A stretch of 64,000 nucleotides of DNA from an uncultured Alphaproteobacteria bacterium (GTDB lineage: Bacteria > Pseudomonadota > Alphaproteobacteria > HIMB59 > GCA-002718135), in the NCBI GenBank assembly GCA_902622475.1, contig CACNPW010000001.1, positions 2,217 through 66,216 on the forward strand, read 5' to 3'. Within the stretch, counting starts at the first letter, position 1; every line of letters begins with the position of its first letter. The notes under the pieces were generated by a model. The model saw only the letters and a program-made list of their open reading frames with translations. It was not told the DNA's origin and did not search any database. Of the stretch, positions 30,537 to 64,000 are shown piece by piece. A program made the position numbers and the translations under genes.

Positions 30537-30567
30537 TAAATTAAATCTAATAAATATAAGCCAAATA

Positions 30568-30873
30568 ATGACTACTCTTATTGTAATTCAACTCATACTA
30601 GCAATTGCTCTTGTTATTTTAGTTTTATTGCAAGGATCAGATAATGAAGGTTTGGGTCTTGGTGGAGGAACTTTTGGTGGAATGATGTCAGCTAGAGGCT
30701 CAGCTAATCTTCTTTCAAGATTAACAGCTATTACAGCAACTTTATTCATGATTATGAGTGTTGTACTAACAATAACTGCATCCGTTGGATCAGATCGTAA
30801 TGTATTAGAGTCACTTCCTTCAATAAATACCGAAGAAACTTCTGAAGAACCATCTATACCAGAAAATAATTAA
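30568..30873 (+). CDS. secG: Preprotein translocase subunit SecG
   Basis: 101 aa, two TMs, LLQGSDNEGLGLGGG motif. Confidence 0.9.
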   Translation: MTTLIVIQLILAIALVILVLLQGSDNEGLGLGGGTFGGMMSARGSANLLSRLTAITATLFMIMSVVLTITASVGSDRNVLESLPSINTEETSEEPSIPENN

Positions 30874-30920
30874 TTATATCTTGCTATAAATAGATCTATT
30901 ATGTATCACGGTATTCCGTA

Positions 30921-32534
30921 ATGCATTTTGTTTTTATTACGGGTGGTGTCGCGTCATCTCTTGGAAAAGGTATAGCCTCAGCCTCACTAGCAACTCTTTT
31001 AAAAAGTAGAAAATTTAAAGTAAGGATAAGAAAGTTAGATCCGTATTTAAATGTGGATCCCGGAACAATGAGTCCATATCAACATGGTGAAGTATATGTT
31101 ACAGATGATGGTGCAGAAACAGATTTAGACCTTGGTCATTACGAAAGATTCACAAATCAGTCTGCTAAACAATCAGATAGCGTGTCGTCAGGTAAAATTT
31201 ATTCCAATGTTCTCCTAAAAGAAAGGAAGGGGGATTACCTTGGTTCAACAATTCAGGTAATTCCTCATGTTACCAATGAAATAAAATCGTTTATTAATAG
31301 TGATTTAAAAAATGAAGATATCGCAATTTATGAAATAGGAGGAACAGTTGGAGATATTGAATCTCTACCTTTTTTAGAAGCAATAAGACAAATTAGAAAT
31401 GATAAAAATATTTCATCAGCATTAATTCATATGACTTATATTCCATATTTAAGTTCAGCAGGTGAGTTAAAAACGAAACCTACTCAACATTCAGTTAAAG
31501 AACTTCTCAATGCTGGTATTCAGCCTGATATAATTATGTGTAGATCTGAACAACCAATTGATAATGATTCAATTTCTAAAATATCTTTATTTTGTAATGT
31601 TAAAAAAGAGTCAGTAATTCCTGCATTGAATGCTAAATCAATTTATGAAGTTCCTTCATTATATTCTAAATATGGTTTGGATGAAGCTCTCCTTAAACAA
31701 TTGGGCTATAAACCAAAAAATCATAAATTAAATTTAAAACCTTGGATCGATCTTCAAAAAAAAATTAAAAAAAGAAAACATAAAGTAAAAATTGCAGTAG
31801 TTGGAAAATACACAAATCTTAAAGATAGTTATAAATCACTTAATGAAGCATTGATACATGGGGGAATAGAAAATTCTGCTGAAGTAGATATTCAATGGAT
31901 TAATTCTGAAAAAGAAAACAATATCAATTTAATGAAAAAATTAAAAGGTTGTGATGGTATTCTTATTCCGGGTGGTTTTGGTATTCGTGGTATTAATGGA
32001 AAAATTAGTGCTATCAAATACGCGAGAGAAAACAATATTCCTTTTTTTGGAATATGTCTTGGAATGCAGTTAGCAGTTATTGAAATAGCACAAAATGTTC
32101 TCAAAATTAAAAATGCTCACTCTTCAGAATTTAAGAAAACTACTAAATCAGTTGTAGGATTAATGACAGAATGGGTAAATAAAAACAAGATTGAAAAAAG
32201 AGATAAAAATAGTGATAAGGGTGGAACGATGCGTCTTGGAGCATACAAAGCTATTTTGAAAAAAAATTCAAAAATCTTTTCGATATATAAAAATAGAGTA
32301 ATTAGTGAGAGACACAGACATAGATACGAAGTAAATCAGAAATTTCTATCTAAATTTGAAAACAAAGGTTATTATTTCAGCGGTATGTCGCCAGATGGAT
32401 TATTGCCTGAAGTACTCGAGAGTAAAAAACATAAATGGTTTATAGGCGTTCAATTTCATCCAGAGTTAAAATCAAGACCATTAGATCCACACCCTCTTTT
32501 TGTATCATTTATAAAGGCTGCAATTAATGATTAA
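30921..32534 (+). CDS. pyrG: CTP synthase
   Basis: FITGGVASSLGKG and DPYLNVDPGTMSP motifs, plus a GATase domain with GICLGMQ and QFHPE. Confidence 0.97.
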   Translation: MHFVFITGGVASSLGKGIASASLATLLKSRKFKVRIRKLDPYLNVDPGTMSPYQHGEVYVTDDGAETDLDLGHYERFTNQSAKQSDSVSSGKIYSNVLLKERKGDYLGSTIQVIPHVTNEIKSFINSDLKNEDIAIYEIGGTVGDIESLPFLEAIRQIRNDKNISSALIHMTYIPYLSSAGELKTKPTQHSVKELLNAGIQPDIIMCRSEQPIDNDSISKISLFCNVKKESVIPALNAKSIYEVPSLYSKYGLDEALLKQLGYKPKNHKLNLKPWIDLQKKIKKRKHKVKIAVVGKYTNLKDSYKSLNEALIHGGIENSAEVDIQWINSEKENNINLMKKLKGCDGILIPGGFGIRGINGKISAIKYARENNIPFFGICLGMQLAVIEIAQNVLKIKNAHSSEFKKTTKSVVGLMTEWVNKNKIEKRDKNSDKGGTMRLGAYKAILKKNSKIFSIYKNRVISERHRHRYEVNQKFLSKFENKGYYFSGMSPDGLLPEVLESKKHKWFIGVQFHPELKSRPLDPHPLFVSFIKAAIND

Positions 32535-57527: not shown

Positions 57528-58850
57528 TTATCTAGCAAGTGCCCCCATAGGATCCCAAGGCGCTAAAGCAACTGGTTCCATATCTAAATATTTTAAAAGT
57601 CTCTTGTTAAGGTATTTTTTATCAATGACAACTTCATAGGTATATTCATCAAACCATTCATCAGTCATCATCATATATCCTTGATTACCACTTTTTGTTC
57701 CCCAGCTATTTTCAATTTTCCATTTTGTTGAATTTCTTTTTTTTATATCAACACCCGTTAAAAGCATGGCATGAGTCATTTCACTATCACCGTACTCTAA
57801 ACGTGTTTGTTTATTCATCTTAAAAGATGTTTGAAACACATTTTCATAATCGTAAATACCCATATCAAGAACACCCATATCACGACTAAAACGCTTCCCA
57901 ACATCACAACCAAACCATACAGCTTCATTATTTTTTATAGAGTCCATTGCAGATTTTTTTAATTCTTTAATATCTACATTTAAATATTTAATAATTTGTC
58001 CCTCAACAACGTTACCAAGATATTCAACTGTGTACATTGTATTAAATTTTTTATTGCTCATTGGAGCGTGAATTAAGCAAACTTTATCTTTAATATTGAT
58101 ATCAGCATATTTTTTGCAGAAATCAATTGGTGTCATATCTGAAATGACAATGTGTCTATTATCTTTATTTCTAGTAGACCAATTGATAACATCTGGCGGT
58201 TGACCAAGGAACATTGCTAGTAGATTATAAATTGTTTTCATCATTTCTTTTTTTAGAGCTGAGGAATTTTTAGCTGGTTTCTTTCTTAATATAGAAGCAA
58301 ATTCTCTTAGTTTGTGTGTAAGAATATAATTCATAGCACCAGATTTACTGCTATGATTTGTTTCAGGCATTACATCTTTTGGAACAGCACCATACTTATT
58401 AATTAAATTTACAAACATATCCCACTGCCCACCATCTTGCACTGGTGCTTTTAAGAGATGTGTTATTAGTCTGCTCTCAAATGATTCATCTCTAGATTTG
58501 ATAATATTCTCTAAAAAATAGTTAGCTTTCTCTAACTTATCCCAAAACATGAAATAATTTTGTGAAAATTCAAATGTATTTAGTTCAAGGCTATCAACAA
58601 CTTGTAGTCGCATAAGATTTAATCCTGCAAATCCCCAACATCTCCCTGATGCCATTTGATTTGTTGCAGGTAGTTCTTTTTTTATTAGATTAGAAAAATT
58701 ATGATTGATTTGACTAAAGTTTTCCCAATTGAGTGCAACATTGGCTAAATCATTTTTAATTAATGCATTTCTTGATGCTGTATTTTTATTATTTCTAAGA
58801 AATTTATTTTTGAAAGTTTTAATTGTTGATAGAGATATATTTTTTGCCAT
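57528..58850 (-). CDS. pepC: Aminopeptidase C / bleomycin-hydrolase-type cysteine peptidase (family C1B)
   Basis: Active-site region NQMASGRCWGFAGLN and a C-terminal HAMLLTG...ENSWG segment. 440 aa. Confidence 0.85.
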   Translation of the reverse strand: MAKNISLSTIKTFKNKFLRNNKNTASRNALIKNDLANVALNWENFSQINHNFSNLIKKELPATNQMASGRCWGFAGLNLMRLQVVDSLELNTFEFSQNYFMFWDKLEKANYFLENIIKSRDESFESRLITHLLKAPVQDGGQWDMFVNLINKYGAVPKDVMPETNHSSKSGAMNYILTHKLREFASILRKKPAKNSSALKKEMMKTIYNLLAMFLGQPPDVINWSTRNKDNRHIVISDMTPIDFCKKYADINIKDKVCLIHAPMSNKKFNTMYTVEYLGNVVEGQIIKYLNVDIKELKKSAMDSIKNNEAVWFGCDVGKRFSRDMGVLDMGIYDYENVFQTSFKMNKQTRLEYGDSEMTHAMLLTGVDIKKRNSTKWKIENSWGTKSGNQGYMMMTDEWFDEYTYEVVIDKKYLNKRLLKYLDMEPVALAPWDPMGALAR

Positions 58851-61471: not shown

Positions 61472-62077
61472 TTACTTGGATAATTTAATTTTACTTTCAG
61501 TTTTGTTTATGAGTCTTTTAATGTTTTCTGTGTGTTTATGATAAATAATTAAAGTTAAATAAATAAAGAAAATTAGAATATAAAAATTAAAATTAATAAA
61601 AATATAATAAGATGGAGCTACTAAAATTCCAATTAAAGATCCAAGAGAAGAGTATTTACTTACAAAAGCTGTTACGAGCCATACTAATAAAAATAATATT
61701 CCAATATAAGGATTAAAACCAAATAAAAAACCAATATACGTTGCTACTCCTTTTCCACCTTTAAATTTCAACCAGACAGGATAGATGTGACCTAATATGG
61801 CAAAGTGACAGAGAAGTATTTTATTCAATAAAGAAATATCTTGAAAATACATTTGTAAAATGAGGAACGGAAGAAAGCCTTTAAAAATATCAAAACAAAG
61901 AACAATGAATGCTACAAATTTATTTCCTGTTCTTAAAACATTTGTTGCACCTACATTTCCAGAACCAACCTTTCTAATATCTCCCAAGCCAAATAATTTT
62001 GTAAAAATCAATGCAAAGGGTAATGATCCTATTACATAAAACAATATGATTAATGATAAACTACTTACTAAAGTCAT
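61472..62077 (-). CDS. plsY: Glycerol-3-phosphate acyltransferase PlsY
   Basis: GSGNVGATNVLR and KGGKGVAT motifs. Polytopic membrane protein. Confidence 0.93.
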   Translation of the reverse strand: MTLVSSLSLIILFYVIGSLPFALIFTKLFGLGDIRKVGSGNVGATNVLRTGNKFVAFIVLCFDIFKGFLPFLILQMYFQDISLLNKILLCHFAILGHIYPVWLKFKGGKGVATYIGFLFGFNPYIGILFLLVWLVTAFVSKYSSLGSLIGILVAPSYYIFINFNFYILIFFIYLTLIIYHKHTENIKRLINKTESKIKLSK

Positions 62078-63215
62078 CTCTGTTTTTAATAATTAAGTCT
62101 AAGCATGCCATTCGTACTGCAACACCCATAGCGACCTGTTCTTGTATTAAGCTCCTCGTGACGTCATCGGCAAGTTTTGAGTCTATTTCTACGCCACGGT
62201 TCATTGGACCTGGATGCATGACGAAAGCATTTTTTTTTGCATATTTAAGTTTATTGTAATCTAAACCATACTTTTTAAAATAAGTCTTTTGATTTGGCAT
62301 TATTTTCCCAACTATTCTTTCTTTTTGAATACGTAGCATCATAACAATATCACAATTCTGTAATCCCTTTTTCATTTCTGTATAAACGTTCACAGGTAGT
62401 TTATTTAAACTTTTTGGTAACCATTCTTTAGGCCCAATAACATTTATTTTTGCACCTAACTTTGATAGTATGATTATGTTTGATCGAGCAACACGGCTAT
62501 GTAAAATATCCCCGCAAATAGCAATTTTTAATTTTGCGAAATTTTCAAATTTATTTTTAATAGTAAGTGCATCTAATAACGCTTGTGTGGGATGCTCATG
62601 ACTTCCATCACCAGCGTTTATTACAGACGCATCTACTGTTTCTGAAATTTTTTTACTAATTCCTTCCTCTGGATGTCTGACAATTAAAACGTCAGGATTC
62701 ATTGAATTAATAGTAGTCATAGTATCGAGTAAGGTCTCACCTTTGTTAATAGAACTATCTTTTACCACTACATTAATGAGATCTGCTCCTAGCCTTTTAG
62801 CAGCAACTTCAAAACTTGTTCTTGTTCTTGTTGAATCTTCAAAAAAAAGATTAAATATTGTTCTTCCTTCTAAAATATTAATTTTTTTAATTTTCCTTTT
62901 ATTAAAAGTTATATATTTTTTAGATTCATCTAAAATGTGCTCAATTTCTTTCTTGGTTAAATCAGCTGTTTCTACTAAATGAATTTTTTTAAAAATATTT
63001 TTACTTCTTTTTAATTTGATATTTGTTTTTGAAGAAATTGATGAATAATATTTTAAAGCTATTTTTTCTGCATCTTTAAGAATTTTTGAACCTGTAGATG
63101 ATCTGATTGCTTTTAATTTTGGCATTTTCACTTTCATTTGCCAATATTTTGAATTTTCTCTTTTATATAATTTTATGTGTCCTGATTTAAGTAGCTTTGA
63201 ATTCATATGTGTCAA
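62061..63215 (-). CDS. pyrB: Aspartate carbamoyltransferase catalytic subunit with an unusual ~75-aa N-terminal extension
   Basis: STRTRTSFE, HPTQALLD and HPGPMNRG motifs. The ATCase core begins near residue 78, and no ATG, GTG or TTG lies close to that point. Confidence 0.9.
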   Translation of the reverse strand: MTHMNSKLLKSGHIKLYKRENSKYWQMKVKMPKLKAIRSSTGSKILKDAEKIALKYYSSISSKTNIKLKRSKNIFKKIHLVETADLTKKEIEHILDESKKYITFNKRKIKKINILEGRTIFNLFFEDSTRTRTSFEVAAKRLGADLINVVVKDSSINKGETLLDTMTTINSMNPDVLIVRHPEEGISKKISETVDASVINAGDGSHEHPTQALLDALTIKNKFENFAKLKIAICGDILHSRVARSNIIILSKLGAKINVIGPKEWLPKSLNKLPVNVYTEMKKGLQNCDIVMMLRIQKERIVGKIMPNQKTYFKKYGLDYNKLKYAKKNAFVMHPGPMNRGVEIDSKLADDVTRSLIQEQVAMGVAVRMACLDLIIKNRDDFSK

Positions 63216-63233
63216 TAATGTGTAAGTATGTGT
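63207..63233 (-). repeat. Three phased direct repeats ATGTGT(A/C)A (11- and 10-bp spacing) at the pyrB 5' end
   Basis: ATGTGT occurs at 63207-63212, 63218-63223 and 63228-63233 on the plus strand. In pyrB sense this reads TTACACAT/TTACACAT/TGACACAT. Confidence 0.5.
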
Positions 63234-63244
63234 AAACTAATTTA

Positions 63245-63703
63245 TTAATTATTTCTATATCTATCTAAATATCCTTGTAAAATATAAGCAGCCGATTGTT
63301 GATCAAGTTTACTTTTTATCTTTGTTTTACTTAAATCGGCTTTTCTCATTTCTTTAAAGATTACATCTGATGAAAATCTTTCATCCCAAAGAGCTGTAGG
63401 TTTCTTAAAAAAGGTTTGAAGATTCATATTAAAATCTCTTACTAATTGGCTTTGTTTGTTTTCACTATTATCTAGGCTAATCGGTAGACCAAGAATAAAT
63501 CCACCAATTTCATACTCTTTCAAAATATCTTTCATGATAATTAAATCTTTATTAGTTCCTTTTCTTTGGATAATTGAAAGAGGTGTAGCGATTATTTTCG
63601 ATCTATCGCTTACTGCAACACCAATCGTTTTAGTTCCTAGGTCTAGACCTACAAGTATTTGTGATGTATTAAGGCCATCGATTAAATTATTTTGATCATT
63701 CAT
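63245..63703 (-). CDS. ruvX: Holliday-junction-resolvase-like putative pre-16S rRNA nuclease (YqgF/RuvX)
   Basis: ILVGLDLGTKTIGVAVSD and DERFSS motifs. I preferred the start at M14 (63703) to avoid overlapping the gatC start. Confidence 0.88.
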   Translation of the reverse strand: MNDQNNLIDGLNTSQILVGLDLGTKTIGVAVSDRSKIIATPLSIIQRKGTNKDLIIMKDILKEYEIGGFILGLPISLDNSENKQSQLVRDFNMNLQTFFKKPTALWDERFSSDVIFKEMRKADLSKTKIKSKLDQQSAAYILQGYLDRYRNN

Positions 63704-63720
63704 ATAATGGAGCTCATAAA

Positions 63721-64000
63721 TTGAAGATTGATAAAAATACAATAAATAAAATTGCTCGTCTATCTAGAATAAAGTTAGATGATAAAGAATCTGAAGATTA
63801 TATTAAGGATCTTAATTCCATTTTAGACTGGGTAGAGCAGTTAAATGAAGTAAATACTGAAAATGTAGAACCGTTAAGTAACATATCATCATCAATTTTA
63901 CCTAAAAGAGAAGATGTATCTAATGATACTAATTCTAGTGAGGAAATTCTTGAAAATGCTCCTGATAAACTCGAGGGTTTTTTTGCGGTACCAAAGGTGG
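63721..64000 (+). CDS. gatC: Glu/Asp-tRNA amidotransferase subunit C (TTG start; 3' end just beyond window)
   Basis: My own translation gives (M)KIDKNTINKIARLSRIKLDDKESEDYIKDLNSILDWVEQLNEVNTENVEPL...LEGFFAVPKV. It is absent from the ORF track because no stop codon falls inside the window. Confidence 0.85.
   Translation, partial: MKIDKNTINKIARLSRIKLDDKESEDYIKDLNSILDWVEQLNEVNTENVEPLSNISSSILPKREDVSNDTNSSEEILENAPDKLEGFFAVPKV

Follow-up and report, generated by a model that had tools for sequence, protein, structure and literature searches.

The ATCase gene pyrB of a HIMB59-type ocean bacterium encodes a fusion of two domains. Profile comparisons indicate that the first shares its ancestry with the N-terminal domain of tyrosine integrases, and three short direct repeats lie between its start codon and the gene upstream. 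The favoured reading, with a probability of roughly 60%, is that the 5' end of an integrase gene was captured together with its arm-type sites, was retained, and came to serve the negative autoregulation of pyrB. The parts of this reading differ in strength. An integrase origin with functional retention of the domain is highly probable. Autoregulation of pyrB through the repeats, as suggested by the sequence, has odds that are even or slightly better. Positions are those of the window, the whole 64-kb stretch of DNA that was analysed.

A two-domain PyrB

The open reading frame of pyrB runs from 63215 to 62061 on the minus strand and has 384 codons (Table 1). Its 381-aa product is present in a public collection, in a cluster of 719 members, and NCBI names it as the ATCase catalytic subunit only. 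By hmmscan, the Pfam families PF02729 (OTCace_N, 1e-42) and PF00185 (OTCace, 2e-21) match the product, which also scores 405 bits with NCBIfam model NF002032 (PRK00856; cut-off 263) and 313 bits with TIGR00670 (cut-off 237). The core therefore exceeds the equivalog cut-offs for ATCase and is a member of the PyrB family. The translation contains EDSTRTRTSFE, HEHPTQALLD, and MHPGPMNRG; S-T-R-T-R, H-P-T-Q, and H-P-x-P are the motifs that bind carbamoyl phosphate and aspartate.

Because the Pfam and NCBIfam matches begin at residue 79 of the reading frame, where the NCBIfam alignment is at model position 2, about 75 residues stand ahead of the core. An earlier note on this DNA, made by reading the letters alone, had described an in-frame extension of this length, and its description is borne out. 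The in-frame start-type codons are TTG1, ATG4 (63206), ATG27, GTG29, and ATG31, and codons 32-77 contain none. The earlier note was right that the stretch before the core is free of start codons, but the methionine that it placed first is a TTG and not a start. This TTG is not conserved and is replaced by Phe in several relatives. As far as the aligned sequences tell, ATG4 is the only conserved start codon, and the extension supplies it, as had been proposed. The alignments of the extension to two integrases, P0123 and P0121, start at Met1 of both proteins.

The first residue of the core is Ile78. Across the genomes, its codon is ATT in 70, ATG in 4, ACT in 1, and ATA in 1. These counts, and the alignment with ATCase model position 2, fit a former initiator ATG that has become dispensable, and ATT78 is probably the former pyrB start codon.

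The four genomes with ATG at codon 78 (L058, L059, L060, and L062; KKMHLVE, column 75 of the codon alignment) keep the N-terminal domain (NTD). In these, a PyrB without the NTD could also arise from the ATG at the start of the core.

The possibility that the product is itself a tyrosine recombinase was rejected, since the R-H-R-Y catalytic domain is absent and only ATCase domains follow the NTD. The annotation should read as a two-domain fusion, not as plain PyrB.

Table 1. Features of the pyrB region, with their positions in the window.
Feature	Position	Strand	Basis or remark
ruvX (yqgF)	63245-63742	-	PF03652, E 1e-37; directly upstream, 38 nt from the pyrB ATG
Three ACACAT direct repeats	63207..63233 (63233-63228, 63223-63218, 63212-63207)	-	Proposed arm-type binding sites
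pyrB fused gene	ATG 63206 to stop 62061	-	381-aa product
ATG start codon of the fusion (codon 4)	63204..63206	-	Kept in 77/77 sequences
N-terminal domain, ~57 aa, putative integrase-type beta3-alpha (arm-binding-like)	63036..63206	-	Net charge +12
Variable basic linker, ~17-20 aa	62985..63035	-	In-frame indels, dN/dS ~0.5, low pLDDT
ATT, Ile78, first core residue	62982..62984	-	Codon counts across relatives
ATCase catalytic core (OTCace_N + OTCace) and stop codon	62061..62981	-	Pfam, NCBIfam
plsY	61472..62077	-	Start overlaps the pyrB end by 17 nt

Neighbouring genes

The genes are ordered ruvX, pyrB, plsY, topA. The earlier note had listed plsY and then topA, with neither a pyrC-like gene nor dprA between the genes, and the neighbourhood is as it described. 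Neither pyrI nor pyrC' adjoins pyrB, whose immediate neighbours are ruvX and plsY, and the locus has no partner gene of a class A/B ATCase holoenzyme.

Two observations concern the surrounding annotation. The listed ruvX frame starts at a TTG at 63742, and the RuvX Pfam match starts only at residue 29. An ATG at codon 14 (MNDQNN..., in the region 63703-63742) is probably the real start, which leaves space for a divergent gatC start near 63740. On the other side, directly 3' of topA, lies a peptidase C1-like protein of the bleomycin hydrolase/PepC type (57528-58850; PF03051, E 7e-166).

Homology to integrase N-termini

An alignment of 24 PyrB domain sequences (A1) was used for a profile search against 1.84 billion representative proteins. 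Apart from fragments of PyrB, the matches are N-termini of integrases, with E values from 2e-6 to 1e-3. They include P0116 (126 aa, 2e-6), P0118 (118 aa, 1e-5), P0121 (413 aa, 6e-5), and P0123 (387 aa, 2.5e-4), together with the fragments P0122 and P0125-P0130 (2e-4 to 8e-4). The match always lies at the extreme N-terminus. In the longer proteins it is followed directly by Phage_int_SAM_3/5 domains, and these proteins match PHROG 1, 'integrase', over their whole length (E 4e-25 and 3.5e-30).

A second alignment, A2, was assembled from the integrase N-termini matched by A1. Comparison of the two by hhalign gives a probability of 99.5% (E 3.7e-22), and the A2 profile recovers a PyrB fragment, P0058, at 1.4e-14 among 5.8 billion sequences; given how A2 was assembled, these values are not fully independent of the first search. 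Pairwise identity between the PyrB domain and the integrase N-termini is 28-50% over 47-56 residues. The two sets have R16, S19, W22, Q23, R35, S37, and T38 in common, and these residues fall on the predicted strands and the following turn. The resemblance to the N-terminus of a tyrosine integrase that the earlier note had seen by eye is thus upheld.

One match was rejected as a false positive. P0120 (938 aa; E 2e-5, in 6 stretches) is a repeat protein with repeated VYKNxxGxWxQ motifs. The pattern G-x-V-[KR]-[VI]-Y-K-N-x-x-G-x-W-x-Q-[IV]-G occurs in it more than 15 times, and the protein probably represents a beta-hairpin repeat family that has no relation to the domain but imitates its strands 1-2.

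The AF2 model of the domain has a short helix, strands at residues 11-15, 22-26, and 32-36, a long helix at 39-60, and a disordered tail, with pLDDT of 79-87 over residues 1-50. Full-length PyrB, modelled from a shallow alignment, has a pLDDT of 44. Lambda Int and Tn916 Int are examples of integrases whose arm-binding domains have this beta3-alpha topology. The extension is predicted to have this type of fold, with a three-stranded sheet and a helix.

Curated libraries do not contain the domain. With residues 1-82 and E<=10, PHROGs, NCBIfam, and Pfam give zero relevant matches. The earlier note had likened the extension to the P4-type, or DUF4102, family. Membership of that family is not supported, as no Arm-DNA-bind family is matched by hmmscan at this threshold. 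It had also regarded a profile search with residues 1-80 as decisive. Such a search is silent in the curated libraries, yet the large-scale profile search finds integrases; the silence would have spoken wrongly against an integrase origin, because the libraries miss the subfamily. The profile matches suggest that the domain belongs to a subfamily of integrase arm-binding domains for which Pfam has no model.

Other searches were negative. Foldseek against solved structures gave no significant match for the N-terminal domain, and a profile search of PDB sequences gave only chance matches to ribosomal eL20 (E of at least 1). When cultured phages were searched by tblastn, neither the domain nor integrase P0123 had a match, and scans of IMG/VR with P0116 and P0121 gave no relatives. 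The 64-kb window contains no paralogue of the domain elsewhere.

Conservation and selection

Relatives were collected by scanning one genome per species. All 80 loci obtained lie in single-cell or metagenome assemblies of HIMB59-type, 'Pelagibacteraceae', or MarineAlpha5 bacteria, and 76 of them span the 5' end of pyrB. The alignment of these 5' regions, a comparison that the earlier note had recommended, finds that 75 of these 76 relatives (76/77 with the window) keep extension and core in one frame, at identities down to 70%, which is well beyond chance. Even the most distant relatives, L071 and L073, with 70-74% identity overall, keep LYKRENSxxWQxKxKLP...IRxSxGxKIL..A. The linker between this motif and the core varies in both sequence and length, and its indels comprise whole codons only.

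Estimates of dN/dS (Nei-Gojobori) come from 15 divergent representatives, at a saturating dS of about 1.2. They are 0.14 for the domain (residues 1-54 from ATG4), 0.54 for the linker, and 0.07 for the core. The domain has 16 invariant alignment columns. Since the linker evolves about four times as fast, the domain is specifically constrained, and these estimates indicate that it is under purifying selection across an order-level clade. Conservation of the frame and purifying selection together largely refute both a neutral remnant and an untranslated upstream frame. 'Remnant' was the earlier note's word, and it does not suit a domain with this dN/dS that stays in frame in 76 of 77 sequences. 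The extension is also strongly basic: the NTD and linker carry a charge of +19 in 74 residues, versus +13 in the 307 residues of the core.

Only one relative, L063 (4001-5150; CACNLM010000007.1), has domain and core out of frame. It contains a 1-nt frameshift in the linker, and the domain is called there as a 71-aa protein, P0016. This may be either an error of single-cell assembly or real pseudogenisation.

Among the database 'proteins' that match the domain (P0001-P0082), many end in a translated adapter (for example VSYTHLTLPT) or in unrelated sequence. Chimeric or adapter-contaminated short metagenome contigs therefore inflate the count of stand-alone domain genes. The idea that the domain exists as a small gene of its own was rejected, since the short 'proteins' turn out to be cut off at contig ends, chimeric, or extended into adapter sequence.

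Repeats in the pyrB leader

The 38-nt spacer between ruvX and pyrB reads TAAATTAG-TTT-ACACAT-ACTT-ACACAT-TATTG-ACACAT-ATG. The three ACACAT repeats are spaced 10 and 11 nt apart, and the last abuts the pyrB ATG. ACACAT occurs 21 times in the window, counting both strands, and the pyrB leader is the only site in the window with even two relaxed copies 9-12 nt apart. Comparison of the 77 sequences (50 distinct) shows essentially invariant CACA cores separated by bases that vary. The divergent lineages L375 and L376 keep the layout of ruvX, three repeats, and domain.

L375 (1458-1826) is from an ENA scaffold of 2.3 kb, which has gatC, ruvX, the three repeats, and the NTD. Past the linker, a 122-aa reading frame runs into non-ATCase sequence, and a convergent gene fragment comes next. 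Either the scaffold is chimeric, or it represents a variant whose domain is not joined to PyrB.

Scans around the pyrB leader for a sigma-70-like promoter, a terminator, or an Rfam element were negative. The leader is without a Shine-Dalgarno sequence, and the genome is AT-rich. The only other pyrimidine gene in the window, pyrG (CTP synthase, 30921-32534), has no ACAC repeats upstream; there is therefore no sign of a regulon within the window. The spacer before pyrG (30537-30920) holds a small, unlisted SecG-like reading frame (MTTLIVIQLILAIALV...) and is likewise without ACAC repeats. When metagenomes were scanned for the triple-repeat pattern, unrelated CA-rich repeats dominated among the matches listed.

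Repeats beside homologous integrases

Integrase P0123 is encoded on marine podovirus-like contigs of ~31.8 kb with a T7-type terminase and a head-tail connector. At its locus, exact TTACACAT occurs in 4 copies in 11 kb, all on the strand of the gene, arranged as two pairs whose repeats are 11 nt apart. One pair is just 3' of a tRNA-Thr that is likely the attP core; the second runs up to the start codon of int, TTTACACATATTTTACACATG.

On these and related contigs (L082, 4716-5002, and L370-L374), a complete tRNA-Thr(TGT) stands between a small reading frame and int. It is flanked by two pairs of TACAC-core repeats, and the whole looks like a full attP.

The leader of pyrB in L071, TTTACACATATTTTACACAT, equals the int leader of the L082 phage at 20/20 nt. 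Despite the identical leaders, the proteins are only ~35% identical. In phage relatives that are 85% identical, the TACAC cores are kept at both places and the flanks have changed.

Similar repeats accompany other integrases with this domain. L285 has TTGGTTACAC in two pairs, L081 has GCACACT repeats between pieces of a tRNA-Arg, L377 has three copies of TAGCACAC after a tRNA-Met, and L380/381 have three copies of GCACACC directly ahead of the start codon. Five integrase lineages (L082/L370-374, L285, L081, L377, and L380) thus carry ACAC-core repeats on the same strand with 11-nt spacing, located beside the tRNA or attP and just before the start codon. At each locus, same-strand pairs 10-11 nt apart are confined to these places, with one stray exception. 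No such pair was found upstream of the integrase gene on the short contigs L287, L288, and L289, or on L379.

What these loci have in common is an ACAC core with 11-nt phasing, as would be expected if the repeats were arm-type sites for this domain family. The ACAC-core repeats are likely the binding sites of this family, although what the sequences document is association and not binding.

Proposed origin and mechanism

The fusion would have arisen in an ancestor of the HIMB59-type clade, when pyrB acquired the 5' end of a tyrosine-integrase gene from a phage or island. With it would have come the start codon, the arm-type domain of ~57 aa from the N-terminus, and, just upstream, the arm-type sites. 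Some 20 codons of the former spacer, now read through, would have become the flexible basic linker; the old pyrB ATG would have drifted to ATT after the fusion, and the captured module would then have been kept by selection.

PyrB would today be translated from the ATG at 63206 as NTD, linker, and ATCase. The catalytic chains of ATCase form trimers, so that each enzyme would carry three tethered, putatively DNA-binding domains. These would match the three ACACAT sites, which lie one helical turn apart and end at the start codon. Occupancy of the leader would lower pyrB expression, either by occluding a promoter or by blocking read-through from ruvX. The control point may be a promoter inside the 3' end of ruvX, or the bound protein may act as a roadblock to read-through. 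That the NTD binds the leader repeats and that three sites correspond to a trimer is what we infer, and the regulatory outcome would follow from it.

A more detailed version can be offered tentatively, as a possibility that falls short of even odds. In it, PyrB of the HIMB59/AEGEAN-169-type lineage would be a trigger enzyme assembled from parts of phage origin. The trimeric enzyme would clamp the three ACACAT sites with its three arm domains, and expression would be tied to the level or state of the enzyme. Because integrases of co-occurring marine phages recognise the same motif in this version, there could be mutual interference between the host enzyme and the machinery of phage recombination.

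Alternative explanations

The domain could be translated and functional without acting on its own leader. It might help to assemble the oligomer, replace PyrI or PyrC' in allostery, or bind RNA or a partner, and ACACAT would be kept on other grounds, for instance as a CA-rich region for translation initiation. Purifying selection proves only that the peptide matters, and such a role would suit a pyrB that adjoins neither pyrI nor pyrC', has no promoter found at the repeats, and lies in an AT-rich genome with a leader lacking a Shine-Dalgarno sequence. However, the residues common with integrase N-termini are those of the predicted beta-sheet, and within the window such a leader is confined to pyrB. 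The same ACAC repeats at five domain-carrying integrase lineages are also hard to account for unless domain and repeats belong together. A role away from the leader is possible but unlikely.

Cross-talk between host and phage is attractive but improbable. Here the PyrB domain would bind the arm sites of temperate phages and hinder their integration or excision, or a phage integrase would bind the pyrB leader. The podovirus-like contigs (L082-84/L370) do carry TTACACAT pairs identical to the motif in the leader, but L082-type contigs have a GC content of 37% versus 27% for the window, and the phage tRNA-Thr is absent from all fetched HIMB59 loci. Three conserved sites at pyrB would also be left unexplained.

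A neutral remnant that merely supplies a start codon is very improbable, even though the integrase origin is supported, ATG4 is the sole conserved start, and the old start is now ATT. Neutrality is contradicted by the low dN/dS of the domain at a saturating dS, by its invariant columns, and by the faster evolution of the linker. The genomes are streamlined, with tiny spacers, and the four genomes with an ATG at the start of the core still keep the domain.

Least credible of all is an artefact of annotation, with two genes or an untranslated upstream frame and a PyrB starting at the non-canonical ATT78: ATT can initiate weakly, four genomes have ATG there, and many metagenome gene calls give the domain as a short stand-alone protein, but these are the contig-end fragments, chimeras, and read-throughs described above, no stop separates domain and core in 76/77 sequences, indels keep the frame, codon 78 takes the forms ACT and ATA in one genome each, and coding-type selection upstream of the core means that the frame is translated.

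Comparison with known systems

Canonical PyrB. The core resembles PRK00856/TIGR00670 proteins in exceeding the equivalog cut-offs and in its STRTR, HPTQ, and HPGP motifs. It is unlike them in the 75-aa N-terminal extension and in having no adjacent pyrI or pyrC'.

P4-type and DLP12/P22-type integrases. Compared by hhalign with 14 P4-like N-termini from IMG/VR, the domain gives probabilities of 40-57% and P values of 1e-4 to 3e-4, over 16-24 columns. The likeness to the P4-type N-terminus (DUF4102/PF13356) is local, a SKYW-x-MK-x-x-x-P pattern on the second strand (P ~1e-4), whereas hmmscan finds no match of that family to the PyrB domain. The N-terminus of DLP12/P22-type Int is equally weak as a match, at 2-81% depending on the query profile. 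Kinship with DUF4102 is at most at the level of a superfamily.

Heterobivalent integrases. The arm domains of lambda Int and Tn916 Int are similar in the predicted sheet and helix and in lying at the extreme N-terminus, from Met1 onward. The PyrB domain is homologous to N-termini that precede SAM-like and integrase catalytic regions, and short direct repeats with ~11-nt phasing lie nearby. In integrases, however, a core-binding or catalytic domain follows, whereas ATCase follows in PyrB, and the Pfam Arm-DNA-bind models miss the PyrB domain.

KplE1 IntS. Integrase genes associated with tRNAs can be negatively autoregulated, with att and arm sites overlapping the promoter Pint (PMC2951348). The pyrB locus is comparable in that putative arm sites overlap the 5' control region, and the phage and island homologues show the same layout, which pyrB would have inherited. 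The differences are that pyrB encodes a metabolic enzyme and that a partner site for recombination is lacking.

Trigger enzymes. Fusions of enzyme and regulator include PutA, BirA, and NadR. PyrB is like them an enzyme with a putative DNA-binding domain, which may repress its own gene. It is unlike them in that its domain would come from the integrase of a mobile element, with the operator captured alongside.

A literature search brought up no account of an ATCase with an extension or with DNA-binding activity from the HIMB59-type lineage. Enzyme-regulator fusions and co-opted DNA-binding domains of mobile elements are kinds already known; what appears to be new, as read from these genomes, is an ATCase with an integrase arm-binding domain and co-captured sites.

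Significance

The pyrB fusion is an apparently clean natural case of a mobile-element DNA-binding domain and its sites welded to an enzyme of core metabolism, and it has long been kept in an abundant, genome-streamlined group of ocean bacteria. It also delimits a subfamily of integrase arm-binding domains that is absent from current domain libraries, and a recognition motif is proposed for this subfamily. If the autoregulation is true, the fusion would show how cells with very few transcription factors can gain gene-specific control, and would provide a ready pair of operator and domain, the ACAC repeats and the 57-aa domain, for study.
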